Part shown: positions 1-23,813 of the stretch, one piece after another
Numbering within the stretch: position 1 is the first letter of the stretch
Layout of the letters: every line of letters begins with the position of its first letter
Assembly (NCBI GenBank): GCA_964586355.1
Contig: CAZPGO010000008.1
Coordinates: 1 to 25,444 of the forward strand
From: an uncultured archaeon
GTDB lineage: Archaea > Iainarchaeota > Iainarchaeia > Iainarchaeales > CSSED10-239
Reading direction: 5' to 3'
DNA length: 25,444 nt
Notes under the pieces: generated by a model
What the model saw: the letters and a program-made list of their open reading frames with translations, nothing else
Told to the model about the DNA's origin: nothing
The model's database searches: none
Program-made: the position numbers and the translations under genes

Positions 1-3000
1 GAACAAAATAACTCTGTTGAACTTTCATCGCCTTCTATTGTTTCTCCAGTACATACAAAGGTAGGATTCCAAAGATCTAAGGTTGGATCTAAAACAGCAT
101 CTTCTGGATTTAAAGCATCTTCTAATGATGGATTTGTTGAATTTAGAGATCCATCTTCATTATCAATAACTTCCTGAACAGTAGTATTACTTGAATCAAC
201 AACACAAATAGATTTTGCAGGATCCCAAGTCAAATTATCTTCACAACCTATAGTAATTTCTTTTTCTTTTTTATCAGACTTCTCTGCATTTTTAATAGTT
301 AATGCTATTTTTAAAGTATCATTAGAAATATTAGGAACTGAAATATGTTCTGAACTTCTGGTAACAGAACCATCATTTGATTCTATTGCCCAAGAATAAC
401 TTGCACCTTTAATTGGATTATTTGGCTTACAAACAATAGTTGTTGAGTCTTGGTTTTTCTTAATTTCCCCAGTACACTCAAAGTCAGCATTAATTTTATC
501 ACTACTTTTTTCCTCATCTTTATCTTTATTACCTAATAAATTTCCGATCAAATCACCAAGCTCTTGAAGACCAAAAGAACCAATACCAGTAAACAAACCG
601 TCTCTTAATCCAGCTAGGATAGCCATTCCCCATTTAGCACCGCTATCTGCTTTTCCTTCAACACTTACTATCTGACCATAACATCTATTAATAATATTAG
701 TGGTATCATAACTTTTAGCATTTACTAACAAACCAGTGTTTTCAGAGTATGCAGATCTGTAAAGATCAAACTCATATCTTTCAAGATCTAAACAACCAGT
801 TCCAGGTCTTACATAAACTCTTATTTTTCCAACATTTTTCTCCGCACCTCTAGCTCCAGCAATTTTTGAATGAACATTTATAAAATAAATTCCTGGAGTT
901 AAACCAAGAGCAGAAACTTTAATCTCTTCACTGGTTCCTGTTTCTGAAACTAGTATGTTTTCTCTAGGATTAAACATCAATCCTTGACAATTATCACAAG
1001 ATAATCTATAACTTGTTTCGCTTCCACACCCTTTATTTTCTATAGTAAAACTATCTTCTTTTCCTAAATCATTTATTGTTAAAACATTTTTTGGAATACT
1101 ATAACAGTCTGATAAATTAACAACATCATACTCAAAATTAAAACTATTTTGTATCTCCTGTGCACCAGCAGTTGTAACATTATTAGATCTGAAAATAATT
1201 TTTCCAGTTACTTTGCCAGCAAATCTACCACTAGGCTCAAATCTTAACTTTACTGGATATTTTTTTTCTGAGTCTACTGTATCATATATTGTTTTATAAT
1301 AAGCAGGAGACAACTCCACTAATCTGTTTCCAACAGTTAAAATAAATCTTCCGTTTGGTGTTCCATCAAACTCTACTTTTGCAGACAAGCCGCCTAGTAA
1401 TGGTACTGGAATTTGTTTAATAGCACAATCGTTTTTCAAAGTAAATTGTTTTTCAGAAAATCCAGATTGCACAACTTCTTTTATAGAATATTCTGACATT
1501 GTAAGACAAGCAGAATTATCAAACATTCCATCAAAACCAACTGTTATTGATAGAGGAATTTCTTCATCCCAAACATAGTTGCTACTTCTAGCATCTTTTA
1601 AGGAAACTAATATCTTTGCATTTAGATTTTGTAACTCTGTTATTGTCTGTATTCTTGCATTTGTATTTATGGAAAAATCAAATGTTTTTTTACTATCATA
1701 ATTATTTGTAGAATCAGAGTCTACTGCTTTTATTTCTGTTCCAATAAAAGATAATAGCTCATTATTTATTCTTACAACATCAATTACTTCCAGTTGATCA
1801 TTATCTCCAACCAACTCTATCTTATCAACTACTAGATCTTGCTCAGAAATGTTTTCTATAGCAAGAGTAATATCTTGAGAGGTTTTGTCATTTACATTTA
1901 AACTAACTCCTAGCTTTGTTGGAGTAATATAATAAATACTGTCTGTTGTAGTTATTTCACTTACATGTGTTTCATATTCAGGAGATTGAACATAAACATA
2001 AACTTTATTTCCAGATTCTTGACCTGGAATATTATTAACTGAGACTAAACCTAAAGCACCAACAGTTACTGGGCCTGCAATTGTGTTTTTAAATCTGTCT
2101 TTTACTGTTACTGTGACTTCTTGATTTACTTCTATTTGCTTAGTTGCATCTTTAACTTCCAATTCTAAATTAAAGTTTTTTCCTGAAGGAATAACTTTTG
2201 GAGTAATATCAACTAAAAATGTTTTATCTGAAAGAGAATGAATAGTAATATTTTTACTAAATACAACCTTTTGATCAGAAACCATTTCTAATTTTATTTG
2301 TCTATCCCCTTTTAAGATCGGTCTAAATCTTATCTCTCCTGTTAAGTTTGTTCTTGGCATAAACTCTCCAGTGGCTATATCAAAATTATATTCATTTGCT
2401 TCTGGGGTTTTATTTATCTGTGAATCTGTTGGTAGTTTTAGATTCATATTTACAAAATAAATTCCTTCGTCTTCATTTTCTAATCTAAATCTTGATTGAC
2501 TATATATTTTACTATTATTATTATTTGTAAGACCAAAATTTAGTAAATAATCTTTTTGTGGAGCAGCGGTGTAGTTTGAAACCACATCTTCTCTTAGGTC
2601 TTGGGCTATATCTGTTATAGTTAAGGTAAAACAAAAATCATCATCACAAACAATCTCGTCTCCGATATTAAATGGAGTGGTGTTATATGACATATATTCT
2701 ATTTCATCTTCAGAACCGTCATAAGAAGGATCTGTTTCATAGGTATAATCTCTAGTGTATCCATAACCTAAATAATTAATCTCAACTCTTTCTCCAAATA
2801 AAGCAGTATCTCTTACTTTTACTGTTGCAACAATCTCATAAGCTGTTGCATACTCTTGATCTGAATAATCAGAGTCTTCTATTACTATTTTTGCCCATTT
2901 GCTATCCCCTAGAGTTCTAGTGTCAACATCTTCTTTATCATTATATCCTTGAGAGCTACTATATTGTGTATATTTTTCTATAGTTGCTCCAGGAACATCT

Positions 3001-5054
3001 ATTTCTTTTATATAAATACTATCGTTTTCTAGATATGGGCTATTTTTATTACCAGTTCTAATAACAGCACCAACTTCTCTAAAACTTTCACTTGAAGATC
3101 TATTGCTAGGAACAAATAAAACAAATCTTGCTTTATATTCTTGACCTGCTTTTAAGAAACCATCAAGTTTATTTTCACCTCTAAAAAAACCTAAAAACTC
3201 AATTTCTGGGTTTGAGATTGCTGATCTTGGTTCATATAAGGTTACTTTTAGATTTGCTTCTTGATTTGGATATATTTTTATATAATCTGATTGAGTGATT
3301 CCTAAGTTACCTAAAGGATCAGAAGCAACAACATAAACATCTAAATCAGCATCTAGATCTAAAGCTATTAAGCCTTGAGCATCTGTTAATTGACCACCAA
3401 CTGCTGGTATATATCTATTATATTTATCATATATTTCTACTTTTGCATTTGGCACAGGCTCATTATCTTTATTTACTATACTTAACAATAATTGCCCTTT
3501 TGAAACATCCATAACCACTTCTACAGGCGGAGTTATTTCAGAAAGTTTTGGATCAAAAGTAAAGTCTACAGATTTACCAACAGAGCTTCCTTTTATAGCA
3601 TAAGCATAATATTTTCCAGAGGCTACATTAAAGGAAACATTTCCATCAAAGTCTGTTATTCTTGCTTGATAGTCTGTTAAAAATCCAGTATCAGCATCAT
3701 ATAAAACTACTTGAGCATGTGGATATCCTTTTCCTGAATTACCATTAATTACTCTTATATTTATTGGAGCAACAGTATCTTCTGTTACTTGTGTTAATCT
3801 TATAGTAATGTTTGGTGAAACTGGCATAGATGACACAGCACTAACTGCTTTTGATTCTATTAAGTAGCCTTCTTTGTCTGCTACAACTCTATAACCTAAA
3901 CCATTATTAGAAACAGCAAATAAATATTCTCCATTAACATCTGTTCTTCCTGAAGAGATCTCTTGATCTTGTACTTTTAATGTTAATAACACATCGTCCA
4001 TTGGAATGTTGTTATTTCCAACAACTTTTACTTTTATGTATCCTGTAATATCTCTTGAAAGATATATTGTTTGAGTAGTATCATAATTTACATTTATATT
4101 AGAAGATTTATTTATATAAATAGGATTTGTTCTATTATCTTGTGCTCTTAATTCATAATTACCAGAAAGAACACCAGTAATATTACATGTGCCTCCAGTG
4201 TTTGTTACACATTCAGATCCTGATACCTTAAGACCTGTTGAGGTATATAAAGAGAATTTAATATTTTCTAATGACTCACTAGTTATTTGATCTTTTGCAT
4301 ATGCTGTTATTGTATAATATGTGTCATCCTCTTCAAAATCAGCAACTGTGCTAATTGTTGAAATTACTGTTGTTTCTGTATTTATTAGTCTATTATAAAC
4401 AGTTTCATAACCTTGAGCATAGATTGTTGCTCTTAATCCACAATTAGGATCAGCTAAAACTTCTACAACGCCATTTACTAAATCTACATCACTTGGTGCT
4501 AGAACATTATTATTACTACAAGTAAATTCCACGTGACCAGTATTTTGGATTCTACCATTATATTCATCTACTAAACTAAAGGTATAATTTACTAACTCTT
4601 GAGTTGAATCTTCTTTTTCTAAAAGTATTTTTATTTCTCCTGTCTTTGCATCATTATAAGTATAGGAATTATTAACTCTTTTATAGTTTCCTGAAGCATA
4701 ATCAATATCTATAACAAAATCTTCATCTTTTTCTAGTGAAAAATTTAACTCCCCATTATCATTAGTAGTAAAATTTTGTCTACCAGAAACACGCCCAGTC
4801 AATTCAACTGGAACACTAGGGATTGGTTGATTTGTTTCTAGATCATTAACAATTAATAGAACATTTGTAGAGCCTATTGGTGATATTGGTAATAATAAAA
4901 ATATTCCAGCAATTATTATGATTAATAGGAGTATAAAAAATAACATAGACGGCATAAACTTATCTATTTTATCTGTTATTTTATATAGCCCTGTTTTTTC
5001 TACAAAATCATACCATTTATTTTCTATTGAATAATAGATGCTTTTTAAACTCAT
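1..5054 (-). CDS. Giant membrane-anchored surface protein, paralogue 3 (N-terminal 1684 aa; 3' end outside window)
   Basis: ATG at 5052-5054 (minus), 14 nt after the stop of giant 2 and preceded by an AGGGA SD-like element. I hand-translated this frame at 4980-5054, 3045-3480, 2400-2460, 460-720 and 3-59 and found no stops; the full 5 kb was not checked codon by codon. N-terminus MSLKSIYYSIENKWYDFVEKTGLYK..., then (less carefully read) ITDKIDKFMPSMLFFILLLIIIIAGIFLLLP, i.e. motif plus hydrophobic helix as in the other giants. Carboxypeptidase-regulatory-like repeat signature, e.g. IVNKDNEPVPNAKVEIYDKYNRYIPAVGGQLTDAQGL (3370-3480). IEFLGFF...GAVIRTG module starts at aa 618. No competing ORF of 60 aa or more is listed on either strand in this 5 kb. 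Confidence 0.8.
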   Translation of the reverse strand, partial: MSLKSIYYSIENKWYDFVEKTGLYKITDKIDKFMPSMLFFILLLIIIIAGIFLLLPISPIGSTNVLLIVNDLETNQPIPSVPVELTGRVSGRQNFTTNDNGELNFSLEKDEDFVIDIDYASGNYKRVNNSYTYNDAKTGEIKILLEKEDSTQELVNYTFSLVDEYNGRIQNTGHVEFTCSNNNVLAPSDVDLVNGVVEVLADPNCGLRATIYAQGYETVYNRLINTETTVISTISTVADFEEDDTYYTITAYAKDQITSESLENIKFSLYTSTGLKVSGSECVTNTGGTCNITGVLSGNYELRAQDNRTNPIYINKSSNINVNYDTTQTIYLSRDITGYIKVKVVGNNNIPMDDVLLTLKVQDQEISSGRTDVNGEYLFAVSNNGLGYRVVADKEGYLIESKAVSAVSSMPVSPNITIRLTQVTEDTVAPINIRVINGNSGKGYPHAQVVLYDADTGFLTDYQARITDFDGNVSFNVASGKYYAYAIKGSSVGKSVDFTFDPKLSEITPPVEVVMDVSKGQLLLSIVNKDNEPVPNAKVEIYDKYNRYIPAVGGQLTDAQGLIALDLDADLDVYVVASDPLGNLGITQSDYIKIYPNQEANLKVTLYEPRSAISNPEIEFLGFFRGENKLDGFLKAGQEYKARFVLFVPSNRSSSESFREVGAVIRTGNKNSPYLENDSIYIKEIDVPGATIEKYTQYSSSQGYNDKEDVDTRTLGDSKWAKIVIEDSDYSDQEYATAYEIVATVKVRDTALFGERVEINYLGYGYTRDYTYETDPSYDGSEDEIEYMSYNTTPFNIGDEIVCDDDFCFTLTITDIAQDLREDVVSNYTAAPQKDYLLNFGLTNNNNSKIYSQSRFRLENEDEGIYFVNMNLKLPTDSQINKTPEANEYNFDIATGEFMPRTNLTGEIRFRPILKGDRQIKLEMVSDQKVVFSKNITIHSLSDKTFLVDITPKVIPSGKNFNLELEVKDATKQIEVNQEVTVTVKDRFKNTIAGPVTVGALGLVSVNNIPGQESGNKVYVYVQSPEYETHVSEITTTDSIYYITPTKLGVSLNVNDKTSQDITLAIENISEQDLVVDKIELVGDNDQLEVIDVVRINNELLSFIGTEIKAVDSDSTNNYDSKKTFDFSINTNARIQTITELQNLNAKILVSLKDARSSNYVWDEEIPLSITVGFDGMFDNSACLTMSEYSIKEVVQSGFSEKQFTLKNDCAIKQIPVPLLGGLSAKVEFDGTPNGRFILTVGNRLVELSPAYYKTIYDTVDSEKKYPVKLRFEPSGRFAGKVTGKIIFRSNNVTTAGAQEIQNSFNFEYDVVNLSDCYSIPKNVLTINDLGKEDSFTIENKGCGSETSYRLSCDNCQGLMFNPRENILVSETGTSEEIKVSALGLTPGIYFINVHSKIAGARGAEKNVGKIRVYVRPGTGCLDLERYEFDLYRSAYSENTGLLVNAKSYDTTNIINRCYGQIVSVEGKADSGAKWGMAILAGLRDGLFTGIGSFGLQELGDLIGNLLGNKDKDEEKSSDKINADFECTGEIKKNQDSTTIVCKPNNPIKGASYSWAIESNDGSVTRSSEHISVPNISNDTLKIALTIKNAEKSDKKEKEITIGCEDNLTWDPAKSICVVDSSNTTVQEVIDNEDGSLNSTNPSLEDALNPEDAVLDPTLDLWNPTFVCTGETIEGDESSTELFC
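3210..4860 (-). repeat. Giant 3: array of diverged beta-sandwich repeats (protein level)
   Basis: aa ~65-615. Verified hand translation: IVNKDNEPVPNAKVEIYD...QLTDAQGL. A less carefully read unit around 3850-4020 looks like GNNNIPMDDVLLTLKVQDQEISSGRTDVNGEYLF. Boundaries are approximate. Confidence 0.55.
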
Positions 5055-5068
5055 ATTTTTCCCTAATT

Positions 5069-8000
5069 TTATTCTTTATTATATTTATAACTTGGATTGT
5101 ACCATAATTTAAATATTTTGCTTCCATTTATTTCTTCAAAATTAAAACAAATCTTATTATTTATTATTGAATCATAATTTTCTGTATCTGACTCAGTGTT
5201 TTCTATTTCTTTTTTTCCATCTATTAAGTATTTGATCAAACTGGTATTTAGATTGAAATTATTATTGGTACTTAGATTTGATGGTATTAAATAAATATAT
5301 TTGTAATAATCTGTCACACTAAAATTTTCACTAACACCTAAATTGTTAAGCAACTTAGCTGTTGAAACTATTCTTAATTGCTCAGAATTTTGTTCTGAAA
5401 CATTAATATTATTAAGAACAAACAAAGTTGTTTTAAATAATGTTTTTTGACCATTAAGTTCTAATAACCTATATCCATTTTCTGAAACATCATCTATACT
5501 GGTTTTTCTAACAGAAGTTATCTCTTTATTACTCTCTGTTTTTCTAAACCAATCTATTGGTGTTGTTGGTGATATATAATTTCCTGATAAATAATATTCT
5601 AGGTTATAATTTAATGGAACAGTGGAGGTTAGTTGCAATGGTCTAATATCTGCAAAGCTTGATGTTACATAGTTGTCTTGTGGATCTACCATATAAGTGT
5701 AAATATAACCTTTTTGTATTTCATTCCAATTTTCATAATTTACATAAACATCTGCTTTTTTTGTGCCTGATGGTAATAAGTTTGTGTTTATTGAAACATA
5801 TGGTAGACTTATACTATTATTTATGTAATTATAATGAAGAGCATTAATTGGTGTCTTAAAGAAAATATTTTCTTTAAATGTTTGATTTGAGTTGTGTGGA
5901 TTTAAATAATCATTTAATCTATCTAAATCTGAGAAAGTATAGTTTACATTATCAGATTCAATGGAATCCAAATCAAATTCAACTAAAACAGTTTGTGGCT
6001 TTGTTATTTCTCTAATTATTGAGTTTTCTTTTAAAGTGAATTTATTAAGTGTACTACCCCAATTACCACTAGTAAATATTTTATGTGTTTCAGAGTCTTT
6101 GGTTAGATCTCCATATACTTTTGTATTTACTATAAATTTATCTAATGATACTCCATAATATATATCCATGCTTTTTAAGAAATCTTGAAGATAAAGATCT
6201 ATATCTTTATCATCTTCTAAAACCATATTATTTATTTTAGTATATGCGTAATCTAAAAACACACTTACACTAAATGAATAATAATTTTTATCATTTAGCT
6301 CATAATCATAATATGCTTTTTCTTGCCCTTTTGTTTGAGCATCTTCTAGAGTAAACAACTCCTTTGTAATTTCTGAAAAATTATTATCATTCATCAAATT
6401 AGCATTAATTGTAATAATTGCAAATTCTTGTAATTTTTCTGGAACAGCATCAAAAATTATTCCTTTTAATAATAAATGATAGTTTTCTGCAAGAACAGAT
6501 TCAGTAAACTTAGAATCTATTTCATTTTGTAAATTGATTATCATATGAGTAGAATTATCTTTTTCTAGTTTTTTTGTGCCCTCTTGTAACTTAAAATTAA
6601 TTTTGTTTAAAGAGTCTTCTTTATTGCTTACTATTAATTCAGTATATTTAGTTGAATCTTTTAACAGATCTACTTTCTTACTCATAGATACACGAAGTTG
6701 ATCTTGATCACAATAATATTTTCCATAGTCACAGGTGTTGTATGTAATATCTTCAAGATCCCAAGTAAATAATAATCTATCAAATCCATATTCTTTATAT
6801 TTATCTAAACTAGTATACCCTTGCACACCATTAAATGCTTGTGGACCATAACATTCTCCATCTTCTTGATTTATTGGATCTGATGTTATTGTGTAATCAC
6901 TAGTATCTAAATAAGAAGTTTTCTTTGATGCAAAACCACCAACTTCTGTAGTTAGTGAAAAATAAATATCATCATAGATTGTTTCTTTTAAAACACCCAA
7001 GGTCCAAGAAATTGGATTTCTTATAAAGAATTTTTTTACTAGACTTTTATCCTGATCCATAAAATAAATATCATTTATTCTTATAGAGGATTCGTCTTCT
7101 GTTAGTTTGTTATAAGGTCTAGAAATACAAATCATATACTTTCCTTTTTGGGGGAAGGTTATTGATGAAATTATTTCTCCAAAATTAAAAATTCCTAAAT
7201 TTAGTTTTTTAGAGATCTGTTGATCAATATATGATTTGGTAGTAATATCAGACAAACCCAAATCCTTAAAATCAGAAATATTACCAGTAAAACAAGCTTT
7301 TAGATCTGTTCCTGAAAACGAGGTAAAATCTTCTTCTTGATCAAATAACTCTTTGTTTAAAATTATTTTTATAGTTATTCCGGATTCGTCATTATATCTT
7401 TCATATCTTACTAAAGATTCATCTAATTCTCTAGGAGTAACTTTTGTTTCCTCATTAAATTTATCTAGGGCTTCTTTATCAAGATTTCCTTTTGTTGGTT
7501 CTTTTCCTTTTTCTACAGCAGGGAATTTATCTTGATCCTGAGTGTTTATATCTTTAGAGTCTTCACTAACTTTTTTAGGATCTTTTAATTGTTCTGTAAA
7601 TGGCGTTCCTGTTTCATCAGCAAGCCCTAACCATTGTAGATTATCTATAAATCTTAATTCTTTGTCTAACTCTTGTAATTGCATTCTAGGATTTGTATAA
7701 CCAATAGATAAGATCGGTGTTTTAACTATGCTCTCAAAGATTTGCATACTTCCTGTTCTAGTAGCAGTCACTCTTTCTGCAACAGTTCTATGTTTTGTAA
7801 TTACTTTTATTGTTTCAATATCTGGTTTTCTTAAAACATCTAAACTCCAAACCTCTATTGTTTTTCCGTCTTTTGTCATTGTTGATGGTATTGGTTTTAA
7901 ATCTCTAATATTCTCACCAATAGAGAAATAAGAAACACCGCTTTCTTCAATTTCTGCAATATCTTTTATTTTTAGATTATTTAAAATATATCCTTGATCT

Positions 8001-12469: not shown

Positions 12470-12505
12470 AGATCTTTCCTTTTTTAAAAGTGTTTAATAT
12501 TATTG

Positions 12506-12525
12506 AATATATAATATTATATATT
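12506..12525 (-). promoter_or_regulatory. Perfect 20-bp A/T palindrome upstream of giant 2 (TATA region or operator candidate)
   Basis: aatatataat|attatatatt; the two halves are exact reverse complements. It lies 37-56 nt upstream of the ATG at 12469. Confidence 0.3.
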
Positions 12526-12650
12526 GTTTAAAGTTTAGTTTATAAAGGTTTTTATTTTATCTAATAGATTATTTTCAGGTTAAAATATATTATTAAAGAT
12601 AGGAAATATTTATAAAAGAATACTAGTTAACTGAGAAAAGTTAATTATAT

Positions 12651-14468: not shown

Positions 14469-14520
14469 TCTTTTTCAAAAATATAAGTTAATGAAAATAT
14501 TTATAAAATAGAAAGAAAAG

Positions 14521-17500
14521 TTAAGCGTATTTTGGAGAATTATAGGAAGTTACAGCAGAATACTGTGGATAACCACTAGAAGGAATAAGAATTGAGTGTA
14601 TTGATCTTCCTGCTGAAACATAACTATCTAAATATTGATAACTGGATTTATCTACTGATTGATGTAAAAACAGATCTCTTCCTTGTTGATCTTTTCCAAC
14701 ATATAAAACAATATGGCTTGGTTGAGAATATTTACTGCCAGGTATATTAATATTAATCAAAACACCAGGAACAAGATGTTCTTTATAACTTTCAGTATTC
14801 TGACCAGCTCTCCAAACAACTTTATTTGAAGAACCCATAAACCAAGAATGATTAAGTATATAACTTAGATTATATATTTTTTTTGCAGCCTCTACAGAAA
14901 ATCTAGAACACATACGTTCTCCCCAGCTTTCTGAAAAATCAGCACATTGTCCTGGAAAACTACACCCAGTATATTTTTGTATAAGATCTTTTTTTTGTAA
15001 ATATCCTTCTTTTTGAATTTCTTCTAGATCTAAACTACTTATACTTTCATTATCTAAATCCAAACCACCATTCACACTAGATAAATTATTTGCTTCTCTT
15101 TGAGCCCTTTCTATTTCTTCAGCCAGCATTTCCTCTACCATCTCTTCAGTACTTATTTCTGATTTATCATATTCAACAGCACCTAGGTTTGTTAAAGACC
15201 TTTTTATGTTTTCTTCAGTTATTTTGTTATTAGCTTTTTTATAAACCACATTATCTGCTTTATCATTAATAGGAGACTCTAAAGAAATTTTTAAAATATA
15301 ACTTTCTTTTCCTGCTGAGTTTTTTGTTCTATATACTAAAATATAATAAAATTTATTTTTAGAAAAACTTGTAATATTGTCACTATCAGTTGATTGAACA
15401 ATAGAATGTTCAAGATTGCCAATCTCTCCATCCTCCTTTAAAGCAGAAAGACCATACATATTACCAACAATACCACAAGCAATACCTTTTGCCATTCCAC
15501 CCCACTTTCTAAATCCAAATTTCCAGTTTACTTTTGAGGATTTAAGATTGCTTGTTTTTTGAATAACATCATCAATATTTTTAGTAAGATCATCTGAGAT
15601 CGAAACAACTTTTTGACCATTAACAGTTGTTGTTCCTGTTTTTATAGCATCGTCTACTCCATTTCTAGCATTTTTCAAAGTATTTTGAGCATCTAAAAGA
15701 TCTGCTTTTGTTTTAGTTAATTTGTCTAAATTTGTATTTGCGGATTTGTTTCTAGTAGCATAATTTTCTATCTTTGAAATTTCTTTATCTAATTTAGCTA
15801 TATCATCACTAACTGTTTTAAGAGCATCATCTAATTGTGTTAAGCCCTTTTGAGCATCATCTACAGATATTGCTCTGGTTACTGTGGATGCAACATCGCC
15901 TGCTTCAGCAGCTATTGATGTATGACCGCTTTTTTGTAATAATCTATCAACTAATCTTTTTACATCTGGGGTTCCTCTCCCAGCATTTTGTGGATTAGAA
16001 AAATATGCTGGATTTCCAACACTTGGATCTGCTGCAGGATTATTAAATGTTTTTGATAATATTTTTGCAAGATCATAGCTATCATCAGCAGAAAGAGCCA
16101 TAAAATCATCTACATTATTAACTTGTCCCATAATTCTTGCTAAATCATCAGCATCAGAAGGATCTGGTTGGAAAATGTTTTTTAAACCTCCACTTTCTCC
16201 TTTTAATGATTCTATCCAGCCACCTTTTACTTGGCTTTTTAATGCTGCTTCTGAAAGAGAATAACTTGGGTTAATTGCTGGAGTATAAAGTGTAGAACCA
16301 CCAGAAGTTCCAGGAATAGTAATATTTGTTGTTGGAATTGCTGAGATACCAGAAGTTGGCAAATCAAAATTACTTATTATTTTTGAAGAACCAGCAGCCA
16401 TATAAGGAGATGTTGTAGATCTTAATATTTTTGTGTATCCTGCTTGATCAGCACCAGCAGAAGCAACACCAAGAACAGATCCGCCTTTTAAGGCATTCAT
16501 AGACTCTAAGAAAGGATCTTCTTCCTCTTCTATAGCACCTTCTATTTGATCAATAGTTAATTCTTGAGCTCCATTAGTCCCTAGACCAAAAAGATCTCCA
16601 ATATCAGACATAACACCCTCGACCCATTCAAAAGCTGTTGAAAAACCTTTTCCAAGTCCTGCAAGACCAGTTTTTAAAGCATTTAATAAACCCCAATCAT
16701 TACCAGTTACTTGAGAAGCATAATAAACACCAGCAGGCATACCACAAGTAAATATTCCACAATCTAAAACAATATTTTTTAGAGCTAAAGGTATAGTCAT
16801 ACCTCCACTTACTATTGCTAAAAGAGTATCCCCTGCTGCTGAACACATAGAACAAGATTTAAAACAACTTCCAAAAAATTTAAAAGTATTATCTCTTGCC
16901 TTTGATTTTGCCACAGAACTTGCAGCACTACTTATCTCAAGATCTGGACACCAATCCTTTATTACAAAGAAATTTTGTGCTTTAAAATTTTTTTCTATAA
17001 ACTTTTTTAAAATCTCACATTGTGTTTCAGTATCTCTTGGAGAATAAGTATCATCCCAATCAACCAAAGCAAAAAACTCAAAAGTATCTAATTCTGATCC
17101 TGACACTGAATTATTCTGAACTTCTTTATTAATTGTTTCAAATAATTCCAAAGGAGTTAATGCAAAAGAAATTAGATCTAACTCTAAGGTCTTTGCTCTT
17201 AGACCCATGGCACTAGACTCTCTAAATTTACTAGTTGCTGTTATCTTTAACTTATTACTAATTTCTGAAGTTAAGCTTTCTAAAGAAGGAACAACACAAA
17301 CATTAAAGTCCACTGTTTTTTCTGGCTGTAAGGATACTGATAAAGCATCATGTTCTTTTCCTTGATAGTTATAAGTAACATTAAGAGTACTCTCTTCATT
17401 ATTAACTAAAACAGTTTCATTAATAGTTGAACTTAGTTCTAAAGTTTTACAAACTTTTTCTGGTTCTAATCTTATGTTGTTTACTTTATCTTTTGCAGTT

Positions 17501-20500
17501 AGCTCTAAAGTACCACTAACACTTTCTTTAAAAGATAATAACAAAAGATAATCTTTATTTTCTGAGATACAAACATCTGCAAGATCTTGATTCATTATTC
17601 CTTGTATGACTTTTGAAATGTTTCCAACAACTTTTTCATCAAAGATTACTTTGTTTTCTCCATCAACAGCACCATAACCACTATTAATTAATATCTCTGT
17701 AATTTCTGGAGTTTTTTGTAAAGAGTCTTGTTTTGTTCTAAAATAGATCTTTGCTATAGCATCTTCTTTTTCAGAAATATTACCAGTAAATAAATTTATA
17801 ATATTAAACTGATTTGATCTCTCTAGATTAAAAGCATACCTTTTAGCATCATTAAAAACATCTGTTGCAATCTTTTCTCCAAACTCTTTTTTACCAGTAA
17901 TCATTGTAAGCCAAGTTCCATAGTTGGAGGCTTGTTTAAGTTCTTTGTCATGTGGTAAAAACAAAATAAAGTTTTCTGCTGATTTACTACAACTTTCTGG
18001 TTTTTCCATTTCTTCTATCATTATGTAAATAGTTGTTCTTTCTGGTAAGATCAATTCATGGTTTGCAGCAACAAACCCATCAATTGTTACTTTGTATTTT
18101 CCACAACCTCTTAGTTTTCCATCATATAATAATCTCCCACCGGTAATAGAGACATCACTAGGGGTCATAAAACCTGAGTTTTCTAAAACCAGATGTCTGT
18201 TTATCTTACTAAATTTTTTATTAGTACTTTGGTCTTTTATTAAAAGATCTCTTAAAAGATCAACATTAATAGCATCATTTTGTAAATACAAATAAAATTC
18301 TGTGGTTTTTGTGTTCTTTAAAATATCAGAGATCTCACAATAACCATTGTTATATGCTTGAGGAGCACAAGAACTATTTTGTGTTTGATTTTTTATCTGT
18401 GAAGAATCTGTAATAATTCTTGCTTGTAGATCTTGAGCTCTTTTTAAGATTAAGTTAGCAGCACCAACAGCATCACAAAAACCTGTGTCTCCATCACAGG
18501 TTGTTGAAACTATTGGAAAGTTAAGATTTATATTTCTAGCATCTTCTCCACTAAGACTTTCACAAATAGGAACAGATTGAGAATAAGTTTGCTCACTATC
18601 TCTTATAGTCTCTTGATCTTGAACAATAACTTCTGTTGTGACCAATATTGATTCAGAGCTTACTGTTGCTCCAGACTGTGTTCTTCCAACAAATCTTATT
18701 GGTTTTTTTAGTCTTGGAAACTCATATTGATTAGCTGTTAATTTTAAAACATAGTTTGCAGATGCACCCATTGGCAAAATCTGAGAATAAGTACTTGGGT
18801 AAAACTCTACTGCTGTTGCTCCAAAAGCATCAGCATAAAGATTACCTTTCTTATCTATGTCTGTAATCATTACTGGCTCAGAGCATTCGTTTGTGATGGT
18901 AATAGATCTTTCTTTAGGTTTATTAATCTCTAAGGCATAATCCAAACTTTTTTGATTTATTTTTATACAAGAGGGGGGAGAGATCCAAAGGTATGTTTGA
19001 AAAGAAGTTTCCACTCTGTTTTTAATGCCTGGAGCATAAGCACTAACTTTATAATAAAGATCATCAATAGTTGCAAGATTTATTTTTCCTTTATACTGTA
19101 TAACAACATTTACAGTTTCATCAGGTTCCAAAACCTCCACACTTGGAGGATAAATAGAGTCTTGAACATTTGCTGAAATTCTGTTTGTATGATTGCTTAT
19201 TTGTATATCTCTTAGTGTAATATTACCTGTGTTTTTTAAAACAAACACAGCATGAGTCTCAGCAGGAAACTCATCTAGATGCTGTGCTAGTGGTATTGCT
19301 TGGGTTTGTGGTGTTATTTGCATAGATTTGGAAACATCCACAATTTCAACATTAAGTTTTGTTTTCTCAAACTCATAGAACTCATTATCCCAAAAAATAT
19401 TAAAAGCATGTTTCTTTAACATCTTTGTATCTTCTTTATTTTTCACAACAATTTCATATTCTAGTTCCTCTCCACTAGCTAAAGAAAAGCCAGGAACACT
19501 AACATCTATATTTTCCTTAGAAGGAATAACTCCTTCTCTTTTTACCTTTGGGGTAGCAACAATTGGTTTTTCACAATTGTTTTTTATAGAAAGAGTTATG
19601 GTATTTTCAGATCCTGCTTGAAAGCCTACATAAGAATCTAATAGCTCTGGTTTGATTAATAAACAATCAGATTTAACAGCCCCTTTTAAAACCAAAACAT
19701 CTATTTTCTTTGCTATCTGTTTATTGCCTATACGACCATAGATTACCAAAACCGCTTTTGCACTATTAAACTGAAGTTTAGCATCTACTGTTGCAATCAT
19801 TCTGGAATTTATGGAACCAGAACTATTTATTTCATTTGGAGTTTCTAGATTTAATGAAAGGGTATCAACATTATCTATATATCTTATTTCAGATCTTATA
19901 TCTGTTATTGGTTGAGAGTATTTATTAATAAGAGTAAAGTCTACAAAACCTGTGCTAGAAGTTTGTCCAAGATTTAGTGTGATTTTATCTGGTGCACCTA
20001 AAAGTGTTTGATCTGCAATAATAATCTCTCTTGTTTCTGGTTGATAACCATGTGAAGAGATTTCAAAAATTATCTTATTATTGTTGAATTTTTGATCAAC
20101 CATATATTTTCCAAAAAGACCATTTTTAGGACTTGGTAGAATCACACCGAGATTTTCTTTTTGCAAATTAGTTATTTTTATTTTTGCATTTTCTATAGGG
20201 TCATTAGTTTCAGAATCAGAAATGTCAAAAGTAATTGGAGTATCATAGTCTGCAATCTCTAAAGGATTCATAATTACATTCATTTTCTTTTGTGAATAAA
20301 CATCAAAACTTTTTTTGGTTTCTATCTTTGTAGTATCGTCAGAAAGAACATTTTCTATATATGTAGATCCAAGATCTTTTGCATAGAAATAAGTATATAC
20401 CTTTACAGGTGTTCCAGCAGTTACATTTATTCCAGATTCTGCGATCTCTGTTTGTATAAATGTTTCATAATTAACATTTGTTGGAAAATTTAAGGCACCA

Positions 20501-23088
20501 CTAGATGTTGTTACAAGAGTTAAGATTGGATTTGTTGATGTTGTTTGAGAGGTTAACAAAAGAGTTTTATTTTTTAAAGTAAAGATAGTACTCTCTAATG
20601 CATAAAGATTTCCTTTTACTGCAAAAAAATCATCTGTGTATTCATTTGTTTCACTATCAATAAACTTATGACTTACACAAACATCTCCAACACAATCAGC
20701 AGGTTTATCAAAAATATCTATTTCTATTTTTTTTGTGTTTGCATATAGTCCTGCCTTAACAACTGAAGATCTATTATTTAAAAGATCTCCGTCTTGAGGG
20801 TCTCTTAAAACATTAAGATCAAAGTTAGCCCAAGCTCTATAATTTACTATGGCTTTATTTATACTATCGTCAATTGCTTTAACCTTAACTTTTATTTGCT
20901 TATTTCCTAATTCATTTAATGACTCCCATTCTAAATTCAACCATTTATTTTGCTGATCACTAGAACCAATATTTAAAAGATCAATTTCTTGTGCTCCTGG
21001 TCCAGGATATGGAGTATAGGTTAAAGAATATCTAAAATTTGTGGCATCTGCTTTAAAACCTGTTATTCCATAAGACATGTTCTCTGAATCTGTTTCAAAA
21101 TCATCACCTACTCTTATATGTGCTCCCCCGCTTTTAGTATCTTTTGAAAAAAGAATATCAAACACTAAGTAGTAATCAACGCCTGTTGAGATAAAGCTTG
21201 TCTTATTTCCACTTAGATCTTCAACTCCAACAAAATCTATTATTGGATAACCTTCTACTGCTTCTTTTTGAATTTCTGTAAGATCTAATGTTTTCACACC
21301 TTCAAAATCATCGCCAACCACTAAAGGCATGGTTGTCTTTTTTCCATCTTTGTCTGTGTACTCTAGGATTAGATCTTTATATCCAAAGGTATCAAACTCA
21401 ACTGTGGTTCCATCAACATTACCATCATATAAGATTTCTCCTGTTTTAGATTTTACTAACAAATGACCATCTGTTAAAGGAAACCCTTCTTTTTCTAAAT
21501 CTAGTTTTACTATCTTAGATCTATAGATTAACAAAACCACTTTATTATCAACTGTTGGGCTTATGGTAACACTATCTGATGCCATAACCTCTCTATAATA
21601 TCCTCTAACCTCATATGTTTGATTTGTTCTTAATGGTACAGAGAGATAACCAGTAAGATCTAGCTCTAAATTTTCTATTCCTGTGTTAAGTAAAGCACCT
21701 TCTTTTATAACTAAAATTTCTATTTCGGTATCAGGTAAAGGATTTGAATATTCATCAAAAACATGTATGCCTAGGGGTCTACTGTTATTACTAGTTATTT
21801 TTTCTAAATGTAATTGTATTTGTGAAGAATCTAAATTAACTTTTTGCTGTTCACAAAAATAGTTTTCATAACAAGCTGAAACTATATAATTTAGATTAGA
21901 ATCAAGGTTATCAAATTTCACATAACCATCATAACTAGTATAATTTCCATCTATTAAGGAATTATTAGAATTATATAAATTTACTTTTGCATTTTCTATT
22001 GGTAATAATTGATCTTTATCAATAACCTGAACAGATAAACTATTTCCACCTAGTTTCAAAACCACAGGAAAAGTTTCTTCTGGTTTTATTATTCTTAAAG
22101 TTTTATCCTCTTCTTCTGAATCATATTTTTTATAGTTATCAGCAGTAACAACTATTCTTATGGTCTTTCCTGAACTTACCTTAAATAATGCTTTTCCTAA
22201 AACAGATCTTGAAACATCAAGTAACTTATTATCAAAAGTGTCGTAGATTTGTATAGTTGCATCATCAACATTTTCTCCTTGGTTATTTACAACAGTAATT
22301 GTTACATTAGATTCTTTTCCTTCAAAAGACGCCATATCAAAATCTAGCATATGCTCTTTAGTTTCTGTTTCTTGAGTTATCTGATAATCAAACACAGAAG
22401 ACTGATAACCATCCGCTTCTAAAGTTATCTGAAATCTGGTGTTAAGTGGAGCATCAAACACTAAATCAAAGTTTCCATTTGAAATTACTATATTTTCTAT
22501 ATCAGATCCTGAGGACTCATATCTTATTGTTCCTTTTACTTCTGGAATTATTTTATTTGTAGAACTATCTATTGGTCTTACTATTAATTGACCAAAAGAG
22601 GTAGGCTTAGTAAACACAAAATTTATTTCTTCTTTTTTACTTGTTGGAATAAATGTTTTATTTATTGAATCATACTCATCTTTACTAACTATTAGCGTAT
22701 AAGACTTACCAAGGGATAAAGGGACTTTAAGTTTTTGACCACTATTGATTGCATTAGATACTGTGTAGACATCAACACCATCAGCATCCCTTATAGATAA
22801 AAATACTCCATCTATCTGTTGAGAGCTTGAGTCTCTAAAGTTTGCTGTTAGCTCTATTTTTCCTAAACCAAAAATTAATAAAAACAAAATAATTAATATT
22901 ATTATTAAAATAGCTCCAATTAAAGCAAAAGGAGGAATACCTTTTTTCTCTAAAAAGTGGTTTAGTTTATTTAGAGGAATTCCTTTTTTAGTTAGCCAAT
23001 CACTAAAACCATTATATCCTTTTTCCAAAGAATTATAGATCTTTGAAAAAATGTTTTTGTCTTTTTTTTTTGTGTTTTCTGATCTCAT
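14521..23088 (-). CDS. Giant membrane-anchored surface protein, paralogue 1 (2855 aa) with C-terminal NlpC/P60-type hydrolase module
   Basis: Track ORF. N-terminus ...IYNSLEKGYNGFSDWLTKKGIPLNKLNHFLEKKG|IPPFALIGAILIIILIILFLLIF. Beta-sandwich repeats, e.g. NVTITVVNNQGENVDDATIQIYD and LSVQVIDKDQLLPIENAKVNLYN...SYDGYVKFDNL. CARDB-like strands (VLKNTGNITLRDIQIS, SIKNNCEKPIVA, TITNECSEPVMI). C-terminal GQCADF...SHIVLYVG...FLHQS motif set. Confidence 0.9.
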   Translation of the reverse strand: MRSENTKKKDKNIFSKIYNSLEKGYNGFSDWLTKKGIPLNKLNHFLEKKGIPPFALIGAILIIILIILFLLIFGLGKIELTANFRDSSSQQIDGVFLSIRDADGVDVYTVSNAINSGQKLKVPLSLGKSYTLIVSKDEYDSINKTFIPTSKKEEINFVFTKPTSFGQLIVRPIDSSTNKIIPEVKGTIRYESSGSDIENIVISNGNFDLVFDAPLNTRFQITLEADGYQSSVFDYQITQETETKEHMLDFDMASFEGKESNVTITVVNNQGENVDDATIQIYDTFDNKLLDVSRSVLGKALFKVSSGKTIRIVVTADNYKKYDSEEEDKTLRIIKPEETFPVVLKLGGNSLSVQVIDKDQLLPIENAKVNLYNSNNSLIDGNYTSYDGYVKFDNLDSNLNYIVSACYENYFCEQQKVNLDSSQIQLHLEKITSNNSRPLGIHVFDEYSNPLPDTEIEILVIKEGALLNTGIENLELDLTGYLSVPLRTNQTYEVRGYYREVMASDSVTISPTVDNKVVLLIYRSKIVKLDLEKEGFPLTDGHLLVKSKTGEILYDGNVDGTTVEFDTFGYKDLILEYTDKDGKKTTMPLVVGDDFEGVKTLDLTEIQKEAVEGYPIIDFVGVEDLSGNKTSFISTGVDYYLVFDILFSKDTKSGGAHIRVGDDFETDSENMSYGITGFKADATNFRYSLTYTPYPGPGAQEIDLLNIGSSDQQNKWLNLEWESLNELGNKQIKVKVKAIDDSINKAIVNYRAWANFDLNVLRDPQDGDLLNNRSSVVKAGLYANTKKIEIDIFDKPADCVGDVCVSHKFIDSETNEYTDDFFAVKGNLYALESTIFTLKNKTLLLTSQTTSTNPILTLVTTSSGALNFPTNVNYETFIQTEIAESGINVTAGTPVKVYTYFYAKDLGSTYIENVLSDDTTKIETKKSFDVYSQKKMNVIMNPLEIADYDTPITFDISDSETNDPIENAKIKITNLQKENLGVILPSPKNGLFGKYMVDQKFNNNKIIFEISSHGYQPETREIIIADQTLLGAPDKITLNLGQTSSTGFVDFTLINKYSQPITDIRSEIRYIDNVDTLSLNLETPNEINSSGSINSRMIATVDAKLQFNSAKAVLVIYGRIGNKQIAKKIDVLVLKGAVKSDCLLIKPELLDSYVGFQAGSENTITLSIKNNCEKPIVATPKVKREGVIPSKENIDVSVPGFSLASGEELEYEIVVKNKEDTKMLKKHAFNIFWDNEFYEFEKTKLNVEIVDVSKSMQITPQTQAIPLAQHLDEFPAETHAVFVLKNTGNITLRDIQISNHTNRISANVQDSIYPPSVEVLEPDETVNVVIQYKGKINLATIDDLYYKVSAYAPGIKNRVETSFQTYLWISPPSCIKINQKSLDYALEINKPKERSITITNECSEPVMITDIDKKGNLYADAFGATAVEFYPSTYSQILPMGASANYVLKLTANQYEFPRLKKPIRFVGRTQSGATVSSESILVTTEVIVQDQETIRDSEQTYSQSVPICESLSGEDARNINLNFPIVSTTCDGDTGFCDAVGAANLILKRAQDLQARIITDSSQIKNQTQNSSCAPQAYNNGYCEISDILKNTKTTEFYLYLQNDAINVDLLRDLLIKDQSTNKKFSKINRHLVLENSGFMTPSDVSITGGRLLYDGKLRGCGKYKVTIDGFVAANHELILPERTTIYIMIEEMEKPESCSKSAENFILFLPHDKELKQASNYGTWLTMITGKKEFGEKIATDVFNDAKRYAFNLERSNQFNIINLFTGNISEKEDAIAKIYFRTKQDSLQKTPEITEILINSGYGAVDGENKVIFDEKVVGNISKVIQGIMNQDLADVCISENKDYLLLLSFKESVSGTLELTAKDKVNNIRLEPEKVCKTLELSSTINETVLVNNEESTLNVTYNYQGKEHDALSVSLQPEKTVDFNVCVVPSLESLTSEISNKLKITATSKFRESSAMGLRAKTLELDLISFALTPLELFETINKEVQNNSVSGSELDTFEFFALVDWDDTYSPRDTETQCEILKKFIEKNFKAQNFFVIKDWCPDLEISSAASSVAKSKARDNTFKFFGSCFKSCSMCSAAGDTLLAIVSGGMTIPLALKNIVLDCGIFTCGMPAGVYYASQVTGNDWGLLNALKTGLAGLGKGFSTAFEWVEGVMSDIGDLFGLGTNGAQELTIDQIEGAIEEEEDPFLESMNALKGGSVLGVASAGADQAGYTKILRSTTSPYMAAGSSKIISNFDLPTSGISAIPTTNITIPGTSGGSTLYTPAINPSYSLSEAALKSQVKGGWIESLKGESGGLKNIFQPDPSDADDLARIMGQVNNVDDFMALSADDSYDLAKILSKTFNNPAADPSVGNPAYFSNPQNAGRGTPDVKRLVDRLLQKSGHTSIAAEAGDVASTVTRAISVDDAQKGLTQLDDALKTVSDDIAKLDKEISKIENYATRNKSANTNLDKLTKTKADLLDAQNTLKNARNGVDDAIKTGTTTVNGQKVVSISDDLTKNIDDVIQKTSNLKSSKVNWKFGFRKWGGMAKGIACGIVGNMYGLSALKEDGEIGNLEHSIVQSTDSDNITSFSKNKFYYILVYRTKNSAGKESYILKISLESPINDKADNVVYKKANNKITEENIKRSLTNLGAVEYDKSEISTEEMVEEMLAEEIERAQREANNLSSVNGGLDLDNESISSLDLEEIQKEGYLQKKDLIQKYTGCSFPGQCADFSESWGERMCSRFSVEAAKKIYNLSYILNHSWFMGSSNKVVWRAGQNTESYKEHLVPGVLININIPGSKYSQPSHIVLYVGKDQQGRDLFLHQSVDKSSYQYLDSYVSAGRSIHSILIPSSGYPQYSAVTSYNSPKYA
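14599..14991 (-). other. NlpC/P60-CHAP superfamily (papain-fold) hydrolase-like domain at the C-terminus of giant 1
   Basis: Candidate triad: PGQC(2715)ADFSESW (codon 14944-14946), SH(2792)IVLYVGKDQQG (14713-14715) and FLH(2809)QS (14662-14664). The Cys-to-His spacing of 77 aa and the H-x-x-x-Y-x-G...x-H-x-S layout match the NlpC/P60 Cys-His-His pattern. Confidence 0.6.
15439..15504 (-). other. Second hydrophobic Gly/Ala-rich helix in giant 1 (TM or membrane-inserting candidate)
   Basis: W2529-GGMAKGIACGIVGNMYGLSAL-2550, about 165 aa upstream of the hydrolase Cys. Confidence 0.45.
15640..15875 (-). other. Predicted coiled coil in giant 1
   Basis: aa ~2405-2483: DDAQKGLTQLDDALKTVSDDIAKLDKEISKIENYATRNKSANTNLDKLTKTKADLLDAQNTLKNARNGVDDAIKTG. 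Heptad-like spacing of L/I/V, charged, and no Pro or Gly until the end. Confidence 0.5.
16570..16885 (-). other. Cys-cluster plus Gly-rich hydrophobic/amphipathic module in giant 1
   Basis: aa ~2069-2173: FFGSC(2075)FKSC(2079)SMC(2082)SAAGDTLLAIVSGGMTIPLALKNIVLDCGIFTCGMPAGVYYASQV...WGLLNALKTGLAGLGKGFSTAFEWVEGVMSDIGDLFGLGTNG. The CX3CX2C motif lies at 16843-16866. Confidence 0.5.
21260..22850 (-). repeat. Giant 1: array of diverged carboxypeptidase-regulatory-like/CARDB-like beta-sandwich repeats (protein level, not a DNA repeat)
   Basis: aa ~80-610. Recurrent pattern: hydrophobic-x-V-x-V-x-D, then P-[IL]-x-x-A/T-x-[IV], then a D-G/Y-G turn, then x-Y-x-[IV]-x-V. Boundaries are approximate. 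Confidence 0.6.
22861..22947 (-). other. Giant 1: KKG-IPPF plus hydrophobic helix (signal-anchor or class III signal-like site)
   Basis: K48-K49-G50 | I-P-P-F-A-L-I-G-A-I-L-I-I-I-L-I-I-L-F-L-L-I-F-G-L-G (to aa 76). Confidence 0.5.
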
Positions 23089-23258: not shown

Positions 23259-23813
23259 TTAAAAAGAAACTTTAACATTTTCTTTTTCTTTTGAAGTTGC
23301 TTCTAAAAACTCTTGTTTTTGGAAACTAAACATTTTTGCAAACAGGTTTGTTGGAAACATTTCTGTTTTGTTGTTATAATCCATCACTGTATCATTATAG
23401 AATTGTCTAGAATATGCAATCTTGTTTTCAATACCTGATAACTCTTCTTGAAGCATTAAAAAGTTTTGACTTGCTTTTAGGTCTGGATAATTTTCTACAA
23501 CAACATTTAATAGTCCGCCAATTTCTTTAGACATCTTTTCATTAGCTTTCATGGTTTCTTTTATGTCTTTTGTTTGCATTGCTTGTGTTCTTAATTCTGT
23601 TATTTTTGTTAAAGTTACTTGTTCATGTTTTACATAACCTTTTACAGTTTCAATTAAGTTTGGAACAAGATCATATCTTTTCTTTAACTGAACATCTATT
23701 TGACTCCAAGCATTTCTTACTTTATTTCTTGCTGCAATTAGACCGTTGTAAATTAAAAAGCTAACAATGAATATGATTGCTAAAATAATCAGTAATATGT
23801 ATAGTATAGCCAT
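23259..23813 (-). CDS. lemA: LemA family membrane protein
   Basis: 184 aa. N-terminal TM helix followed by YNGLIAARNKVRNAWSQIDVQLKKRYDLVPNLIETVKGYVKHEQ, the hallmark LemA motif block. SD-like GGGGG sits 9 nt upstream of the ATG. Confidence 0.9.
   Translation of the reverse strand: MAILYILLIILAIIFIVSFLIYNGLIAARNKVRNAWSQIDVQLKKRYDLVPNLIETVKGYVKHEQVTLTKITELRTQAMQTKDIKETMKANEKMSKEIGGLLNVVVENYPDLKASQNFLMLQEELSGIENKIAYSRQFYNDTVMDYNNKTEMFPTNLFAKMFSFQKQEFLEATSKEKENVKVSF

Follow-up and report, generated by a model that had tools for sequence, protein, structure and literature searches.

Giant membrane-anchored proteins and a pilin-like protein in a conserved locus of DPANN archaea, a probable fibrillar-adhesin complex

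The DNA analysed here, called the window throughout, is a stretch of 25,444 nucleotides (nt) from an uncultured archaeon of the Iainarchaeota (CSSED10-239; NCBI GenBank assembly GCA_964586355.1, contig CAZPGO010000008.1, positions 1 to 25,444); it carries genes for three giant proteins, which we call G1, G2 and G3, and for a pilin-like protein encoded between the first two. An earlier reading of this DNA, made from the sequence only, had described lemA, G1, the pilin-like gene, G2 and G3 as co-directional genes separated by 170, 52, 181 and 14 nt, and the listing of open reading frames (ORFs) and their translation agree exactly with this order and spacing. The window is AT-rich (23–35% GC), with a steadily negative GC skew. 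At 29% GC one stop is expected per ~12 codons, and the probability that a 2,855-codon frame stays open by chance is near 1e-105; because stops are expected so often at the base composition of the window, the giant frames cannot be chance products. The placement of the organism among the DPANN archaea is likewise borne out by the taxon labels of the homologues (Diapherotrites, Iainarchaeum, ainarchaeum and Forterrea). The four genes that are the subject of this analysis are as follows.

14521–23088, minus strand: giant G1, ORF of 2,855 amino acids (aa)
12651–14468, minus strand: pilin-like gene, ORF of 605 aa
5069–12469, minus strand: giant G2, ORF of 2,466 aa
1–5054, minus strand: giant G3, N-terminal 1,684 aa, frame open to the window edge

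The common plan proposed for the three giants proved correct: each has an N-terminal motif, one transmembrane (TM) helix, a beta-sandwich array and a colinear module. The parts that could be delimited in the window are listed here.

22861–23088, minus strand: N-terminal module of G1, aa 1–76, a conserved cytoplasmic motif with two '...KKGIP' repeats followed by the TM helix (alignment A9 and profile search)
12272–12469, minus strand: N-terminal module of G2, aa 1–66 (alignment A9 and profile search)
4881–5054, minus strand: N-terminal module of G3, aa 1–58, a shorter variant in which only one GIP-like turn is present (alignment A9)
21289–22854, minus strand: membrane-proximal transthyretin-like/CarboxypepD_reg repeat array of G1, aa ~79–600 (Pfam, jackhmmer)
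20608–21240, minus strand: conserved module of G1, aa 617–827 (BLASTP against G2)
7490–10762, minus strand: aa 570–1660 of G2, a nearly all-beta string of sandwiches that includes the conserved module, aa 606–816 (nt 10022–10654; AlphaFold2, AF2)

The TM scan found exactly one strong helix per giant (aa 54–72 in G1, 44–62 in G2 and 37–55 in G3) and no second one in any of the three. Repeats of ~80 aa and of the CarboxypepD_reg/transthyretin, SpaA and bMG3 types occupy aa ~65–600 of each giant, as mapped with Pfam and jackhmmer, and an extra beta-sandwich repeat recurs at an equal offset (G1 950–1031, G2 939–1018, G3 961–1043). The conserved module, for which BLASTP aligns G1 617–827 with G2 606–816 (E-value 3e-7), displays the motifs HIRxG...KW...YR...RxPxD...LYA...C....C in the family alignments of both G1 and G2. 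G2 and G3 align over ~1000–1380 aa with 24.5% identity (best E-value 1e-45). G1 is a remote paralogue, with only two to three short significant BLAST segments against G2 and G3 of the window, and it aligns with the G2 of Candidatus (Ca.) Forterrea at 23% identity across ~1200 aa; its kinship to G2 and G3 is remote yet colinear to ~aa 1170, beyond which all three diverge completely. Pfam matches above cut-off in the giants are to CarboxypepD_reg, SpaA and CLIPPER_2 (the CLIPPER_2/DUF7507 domain being found in G1), and the G1 and G2 family profiles, when compared with PDB sequences, matched only CnaB, transthyretin and scaffoldin-type repeats. No C-terminal sorting signal of the PGF-CTERM type is present in G1 or G2, the giants that are complete in the window.

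The peptide with which the giants start, [IL]Y..[LI]E.K[YW]...D.L..KGI.LYK..D.LEKKGIP.F, followed by a strongly hydrophobic helix, had been put forward in the sequence-only reading as a motif of DPANN proteins; a profile search shows that it is real, and widespread in giants labelled as DPANN. With a profile of 64 positions we retrieved 1104 clusters at E-values of at most 1e-3, and 473 at 1e-10 or below, among 1.84 billion representatives, and in every case the profile matched the very start of the protein. Among 143 new top matches, 81 reach 1500 aa or more (median 2468 aa), and the short proteins look like fragments at contig ends. Residues Y7, E11, D19, Y29, D33, E36 and P41 are kept in 128–142 of the 143 clusters, and this strong conservation of seven residues argues that the N-terminal module is more than a simple leader peptide. 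It is covered by no Pfam or NCBIfam model, and the named proteins that carry it come from Ca. Micrarchaeota, ainarchaeum or an 'archaeon'. The module provides a simple sequence handle for finding such proteins in any metagenome.

The second component of the locus owes its name to its start, the coordinates of which are given below.

14376–14468, minus strand: prepilin-type (class III) signal of the pilin-like protein, MFLEINNKKG/FTLFTALVSLLLISVTLVLLF, read from the sequence

The leader is short, charged and Gly-ended, and ~20 hydrophobic residues follow it. The pattern [KRQS][GA]-F-[TSN]-[LI]-F-T-[AP], with its hydrophobic stretch, is kept in all ten homologues collected, and aa 8–52 give a weak match to the NCBIfam model ComGF (E-value 2.5e-4). 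No Pfam family was found in this protein, and nothing was matched beyond its N-terminus; because the remainder matches nothing, the 605-aa protein is pilin-like by its N-terminus only. One-to-one orthologues of it adjoin G1 and G2 in every relative examined.

The impression of a three-giant locus of ~23 kb turned out to be an artefact of the window end. Metagenome contigs from the Joint Genome Institute and from Logan, up to 156 kb long and with exact matches to window genes, show the continuation in the same population; together with the genes found in relatives, the locus comes to four or five giants and three secreted proteins. G3 is followed by a secreted protein of 966–980 aa with a signal peptide, which we call X, and then by G4, a giant (2484 aa) whose N-terminus is built like those of G1–G3. 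A homologue search from the G4 N-terminus returned no match; a metagenome scan seeded with it revealed, downstream of G4 in relatives, a secreted protein of 120–137 aa, a secreted Cys-rich protein of 690–805 aa and a fifth giant, G5, which is membrane-anchored and has an N-terminus unlike those of G1–G4. The order of the locus is G1, pilin-like protein, G2, G3, X, G4, small secreted protein, ~700–800-aa secreted protein and G5, and the window is the 5' half of this conserved, operon-like DPANN locus of ~42–45 kb.

This order is strongly conserved. G1, the pilin-like protein, G2, G3, X and G4 have one-to-one counterparts in the same order, with 33–49% identity, in Ca. Forterrea and in a metagenome-assembled genome (MAG) of the Diapherotrites. 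A scan seeded with the pilin-like protein, in one genome per GTDB species, gave 16 loci, all of them archaeal and, where labelled, from Iainarchaeum, ainarchaeum or Forterrea; the order G1, pilin-like gene, G2 (and G3) was seen in every one of these loci long enough to show it. More distantly, G1, pilin-like gene and G2 occur at 23–28% identity in locus L036, from a MAG labelled Micrarchaeota (~25%), and in L039 and L041, on archaeal contigs; because the same order recurs at such identities, the duplications that produced G1, G2 and G3 predate these lineages. A divergent MAG labelled Diapherotrites (L042) has the same order as read, without a BLAST check, from gene sizes and from the N-terminus of the pilin-like protein. 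Synteny with the pilin-like gene, which the sequence-only reading had itself named as a point on which it could fail, is thus conserved wherever the contig is long enough.

Some rearrangements within the locus concern the distal parts, or heads, of the giants. G3 and X form a single fused polypeptide in P0020, in P0021 and in the third giant of L036 (21731–29141), which suggests that X is the split-off head of G3; either the lineage of the window may carry a fission of G3 and X, or these relatives may carry a fusion. In L030, a stand-alone secreted protein of 775 aa (3517–5841) is encoded between X and G4, and is 33% identical to aa 1667–2178 of the G2 head. A short motif of the form C-D-x(n)-[YF]-C-D-[AQS]-x-[QG], with a helix behind it, stands where the non-repetitive head begins in G1 (~1531–1557), in G2 (~1912–1940) and in X (aa ~330–350; L006, 23293–26235). 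We considered homology between the heads of G1, G2 and X on account of this 'CD..[YF]CD[AQ]xQ + helix' pattern and rejected it as too weak (hhalign E-values of 1e-3 to 4e-2 over three independent profile comparisons).

G2 can be divided into the N-terminal module, the TM helix, a beta-sandwich stalk extending to ~aa 1620, a variable linker and a conserved non-repetitive head (~1860–2466). Its family alignment, A2, comprises 18 sequences. The full-length orthologues have 2300–2560 aa and are labelled Diapherotrites, ainarchaeum or 'archaeon'; G1 orthologues are fewer. The AF2 model of aa 570–1660, built from 20 sequences, consists almost wholly of beta strands (mean predicted local distance difference test, pLDDT, of 74.5). 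In Foldseek this stalk retrieves hydin/ASH domains, macroglobulin (MG) domains of alpha-2-macroglobulin, PrgB immunoglobulin domains and viral DUF11/Big arrays with E-values down to 1e-20; because the TM-scores are only 0.1–0.2, such matches mean 'beads on a string' and not a specific relative. The same searches bear on the idea that the giants are alpha-2-macroglobulin-like protease traps or some other defensive surface shield, which we find barely credible. Weak Pfam matches to bMG3 and MG4, and Foldseek matches to alpha-2-macroglobulin, complement and thioester-containing protein structures, speak for it, but the MG-type Pfam matches lie under the cut-off, and TM-scores of 0.1–0.2 are to be read as a resemblance between two strings of beta sandwiches. 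Identity with alpha-2-macroglobulin was rejected, as neither CGEQ nor C[GLA]EQ occurs in G1, G2, G3, X or the pilin-like protein.

G3 is incomplete in the window, which ends in a repeat.

1–107, minus strand: first part of a repeat unit of 354 bp (118 aa) close to the C-terminus of G3, in which the contig ends

Its full length is 1827 or 1945 aa (in L005 and L006), and the difference is a perfect 354-bp tandem duplication, with 2.0 perfect copies in L006 (22364–23078) against a single one in L005. The window, like L007 and L008, breaks off within this repeat. Either population copy-number variation or assembly collapse may account for the difference. That the G3 C-terminus might be a hypervariable target of the diversity-generating-retroelement type was considered and abandoned: the perfect 354-bp tandem duplication explains the breaks in the three contigs.

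G1 is composed, in this order, of the N-terminal module, the TM helix, the beta-sandwich stalk, a Cys-rich conserved middle (aa ~1490–2140) and several distal parts, namely a Gly/Cys-rich, weakly hydrophobic stretch (~2060–2135), a coiled coil (~2400–2520), a GxxCGxxGN motif and a Cys/His tip.

14524–14991, minus strand: C-terminal tip of G1, aa ~2700–2855, a candidate papain-like (NlpC/P60- or CHAP-like) Cys/His domain

Among the G1 orthologues used (P0024–P0030, A_G1 and B_G1), the end of the protein varies. Many finish after the GxxCGxxGN segment and a small beta domain, and in the clade of the window a Cys/His domain of ~150 aa is added. Cys2727 and His2792 (Cys27 and His92 in the alignment) are invariant in the nine orthologous tips, and the residue next in line is His or Gln in eight of them (alignment A6). 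One orthologue, P0026, has a true NlpC/P60 domain (E-value 1.5e-23), and hhalign matches the PG..I...SHVxxYxG...IH motif of the G1 tip to this real domain, with a probability of just 13%; the tip matches nothing among PDB sequences or PHROGs. The lytic domain that had been assigned to one giant is overstated: the Cys/His pair is invariant, but the score against NlpC/P60 is under threshold, and the G1 tip is a candidate papain-like domain of putative enzymatic activity. A different tip, a CAP domain, ends the G2 orthologues of L036 and L041.

These tips could point to a feeding or scavenging device, the arms of which would catch detrital polymers or wall fragments while the tips release peptides or sugars. 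We hold this to be very unlikely. In its favour are the candidate peptidoglycan peptidase and CAP domains themselves, as well as a weak match (E-value 6e-4) of the first repeat to cellulosomal scaffoldin modules among PDB sequences. On the other hand, most G1 orthologues lack an enzyme tip (P0025, P0027, P0028 and the G1 of Forterrea), no glycoside hydrolase, protease or binding-protein family was found in ~12,000 residues, and the cluster is without transporter genes.

A link with type IV pili emerged from the relatives. We examined five distant giants with the N-terminal module on long contigs (L037–L041), which were picked blind to their neighbours. In all five loci an orthologous T2SSE ATPase (757–766 aa, 51–68% identical between loci) is encoded within 10 kb upstream of the giant, as is, also upstream, a membrane protein of ~690–790 aa which matches T2SSF just under the cut-off (E-value ~9e-5) in the two copies scanned. 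All five also encode a half-size exosortase/archaeosortase-like protein of 149–186 aa that matches the C-terminal half of Pfam Exosortase_EpsH, and its gene lies a short way upstream of giant or pilin-like genes, and in four of the five loci immediately before them.

L037, 7187–7711: exosortase-like gene
L038, 8540–8989: exosortase-like gene
L039, 9247–9804: exosortase-like gene
L040, 9429–9962: exosortase-like gene
L041, 5807–6367: exosortase-like gene

Small pilins with a class III signal (KGQAF...) occur in several of these loci, and L039 and L041 contain true orthologues of G1, the pilin-like protein and G2 beside the ATPase and platform genes. No prepilin peptidase was seen at the loci examined. 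A 154-aa ORF upstream of the Forterrea G1 was considered as a possible exosortase-like gene and discarded, as it looks like a winged-helix protein instead. As a separate observation, the giants are followed in L037 (25803–28634), L038 (16237–19283) and L040 (19438–22894) by ~8–10 genes for small (74–168 aa), very hydrophobic and probably polytopic membrane proteins, and for such arrays no counterpart turned up in the window or in the Iainarchaeota loci. The association with pilus genes is strong in the wider family; for the genome of the window it is putative and borrowed from relatives, because the machinery genes are present neither in the window nor in the Iainarchaeota/Diapherotrites-type loci examined.

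These neighbourhoods raise the question of whether the giants are themselves clients of a dedicated type-IV-pilus-like machine, in which case the N-terminal module would serve for docking or as a long signal of class III type, in what would be a new archaeal surface organelle. The consensus of the module, ...YxxxEDKY..LD.L..KGIP.YK..DPLEK.GIP.FP followed by the helix, includes a 'K-G/I-P-x-F + helix' arrangement that resembles a prepilin cleavage site. Under this scenario the giants, together with the 'G/FxLFTAL' pilin-like protein, the ATPase, the platform and the exosortase-like protein, would build the organelle: on a base or fibre derived from a pilus there would be beta-sandwich arms with a length of many tens of nanometres, whose enzymatic heads could be exchanged and would cut walls upon contact. 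We consider it an unlikely scenario.

The locus probably encodes a cell-surface fibrillar-adhesin complex linked to type-IV-pilus-like machinery. All its products are predicted to be extracytoplasmic, and the stalks are made of domain families typical of fibrillar adhesins. Further support comes from a gene order kept over very long evolutionary distances, from the fusion of G3 with X, which ties two of the products together physically, from the exchangeable tips, from the changing copy number of the G3 repeat and from the pilus genes beside the giants in relatives; Probst & Banfield (2018) independently came to a like inference for the Forterrea cluster. In each of G1–G4 a single signal-anchor helix, preceded by ~45 conserved cytoplasmic residues, would hold the protein in the membrane, and from this anchor a stalk of 1000–1600 aa, made of tandem beta sandwiches (transthyretin/CnaB/CLIPPER/MG-like), would extend outwards. 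The stalk would end in a non-repetitive, Cys-containing head, with a possible exchangeable tip (Cys/His peptidase-like here, NlpC/P60 or CAP in relatives), and X and the other secreted proteins would be separately encoded head modules. At the membrane the products may come together as a fibrillar-adhesin complex of several subunits, reaching tens of nanometres from the cell, which would bind another cell or a surface, local wall cutting being an optional extra in some lineages, and which would be functionally tied to a type-IV-pilus-like assembly machinery. The sequences themselves show which genes are present, the predicted topology of their products, the beta-sandwich stalk of G2, the deeply conserved gene order, the joining and splitting of G3 and X and the pilus genes next to the cluster in relatives. 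The formation of a complex, its adhesive role, an enzymatic activity of the G1 tip and a dependence on pilus machinery in this genome are inferred, as is the attachment or penetration apparatus proposed in the sequence-only reading; attachment to a host is plausible.

Several observations weigh against this interpretation. For the heads of G1, G2, G3/X and G4 no family was matched in Pfam, NCBIfam or PDB sequences, and none of them revealed an adhesive domain of known specificity. The G1 tip reaches only 13.3 bits against Pfam NlpC/P60 (cut-off 23; E-value 0.086), and this in one of the nine tips; its AF2 model (aa 2515–2855, from a six-sequence alignment) is unusable, with a mean pLDDT of 35.7, and its Foldseek matches are noise. 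As for the pilus connection, the ATPase, the platform protein, the exosortase-like protein and the small membrane proteins have no tblastn match in the window or in L001–L036, and in the Diapherotrites-labelled L042 the genes upstream are restriction and helicase genes, with no ATPase, platform or exosortase-like gene. Finally, several Diapherotrites have been argued to be free-living, in work cited in PMC5905446, so that a role in host attachment is not guaranteed.

In the main rival explanation, the giants are the ordinary structural envelope, either an S-layer or a canopy-and-stalk structure, of a possibly free-living cell, whose wall the paralogues would build without any particular part in cell–cell contact. 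Membrane-anchored proteins rich in beta sandwiches are typical of archaeal envelopes, the cluster makes up ~5% of the genome and is kept in Diapherotrites-type loci, including lineages said to be free-living, and no specific adhesive domain was found by Pfam and PDB-sequence profile searches. However, characterised archaeal S-layers consist of one or two abundant proteins, a composition unlike that of four to five giants of 270–310 kDa with a pilin-like protein. Neither PDB-sequence profiles nor Foldseek revealed any similarity to solved S-layer proteins, and no characterised S-layer orthologue, which would have spoken against the sequence-only reading, turned up in the profile searches against PDB sequences. 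Moreover, the tips differ by lineage (NlpC/P60, CAP, Cys/His domain or none), the G3 repeat copy number varies, and the giants adjoin type-IV-pilus genes in relatives. Such features fit an adhesin better than a lattice, and we give the envelope explanation a low probability.

The preferred reading of the locus as an adhesin complex would make it a concrete candidate for the apparatus by which archaea of the Iainarchaeota/Micrarchaeota branch attach, as suggested by the share of a genome devoted to it (~5% of 0.84 Mb in Ca. Forterrea), the gene order kept at ~25% identity and the pilus context in relatives. Attachment structures of DPANN archaea have been seen by cryo-electron tomography, and we know of no genes assigned to them. 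If the function were purely structural, the finding would still name the main envelope genes of an uncultured phylum.

The remaining genes of the window lie upstream of G1.

23259–23813, minus strand: LemA-family gene, 184 aa (Pfam LemA, E-value 6.5e-60)
23900–24637, plus strand: gene for 3-deoxy-D-arabino-heptulosonate 7-phosphate (DAHP) synthase (Pfam, E-value 2.4e-57)
24644–25444, minus strand: LamG/ConA-like gene, running off the window at 25444 (Pfam Laminin_G_3, E-value 8e-12)

The sequence-only reading had listed lemA in the co-directional gene order, but the gene is no constant part of the cluster. The gene is found upstream of G1 only in the clade of the window (L013, L016, L017 and L023), and is absent from this position in the Forterrea clade and in L042; because the position is not kept there, we regard LemA as a clade-specific neighbour and reject it as a part of the system. 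DAHP synthase belongs to aromatic amino-acid biosynthesis, and the lineage is usually described as metabolically reduced. The LamG/ConA-like protein also has a weak match to the NCBIfam fimbrial model TafC (3.9e-7), and LamG-like proteins have been reported as expanded in DPANN, sometimes tied to type IV pilus loci (PMC5498576).

The cluster itself had been claimed not to be a described system, which is too strong. Probst & Banfield (2018; PMC5905446) note the same cluster in Ca. Forterrea multitransposorum, in one sentence and a cartoon, and infer a role in cell–cell interaction; it occupies 5% of the 0.84-Mb genome of that organism. In loci L009, L022 and L033, which come from the Forterrea genome, the one-to-one orthologues of G1, the pilin-like protein, G2, G3, X and G4 keep this order, and the beginning of the fifth giant comes after them. 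The organism of the window represents a different lineage, with 33–41% identity. That the giants are paralogues is not mentioned in the Forterrea paper, nor are their N-terminal module, the gene for the pilin-like protein, the secreted heads, the variable tips, the wider conservation and the link with pilus genes. In the literature we found, as descriptions of the cluster, only this single-sentence note (PMC5905446) and general remarks on DPANN pilus islands, for instance on the 'specific surface proteins' of these 'dark matter' islands in 2019 (Makarova et al., PMC6393860).

Among known systems, the fibrillar adhesins of bacteria and archaea are close in architecture, and CLIPPER_2 and CnaB-type domains are stalk domains of such adhesins (PMC12617251). 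The likeness extends to the tandem beta-sandwich stalk with the same Pfam families (SpaA/CnaB-like, CLIPPER_2, Big_1 and CarboxypepD_reg), the non-repetitive distal region, the variation in repeat copy number and the giant size. The anchor is different, being an N-terminal helix after a cytoplasmic peptide in place of an LPXTG or PGF-CTERM signal, a type I secretion system or an autotransporter; the locus encodes four to five paralogues together with a pilin-like protein, and in the heads we recognised no known adhesive domain. In archaeal type IV pilus loci, large proteins with DUF2341 or of S-layer-like type, with C-terminal anchors, have been proposed as tip adhesins (Makarova, Koonin & Albers 2016; PMC4858521). 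The giants resemble these in that, in L037–L041, they adjoin a FlaI/T2SSE-type ATPase, a TadC/T2SSF-like platform protein and pilins with class III signals, but they lack DUF2341, are two to three times larger and possess the distinct N-terminal module, and in the lineage of the window the machinery genes are not adjacent.

Hamm et al. (2019) reportedly described the SPEARE proteins, very large surface proteins of Nanohaloarchaeota proposed as host-interaction factors. The giants differ from these in their architecture, their anchor and their multi-paralogue operon, and Pfam and NCBIfam searches found in them no serine-protease, restriction-endonuclease or other domain of the SPEARE type. That giant surface proteins of DPANN archaea may serve in host interaction is a familiar idea. 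To our knowledge, and as far as our literature searches reach, what is new here is how the cluster is built, how large the family of the N-terminal module is, the constancy of the pilin-like partner, the splitting of G3 from X, the variation of the tips and the recurrent neighbourhood of ATPase, platform and exosortase-like genes.

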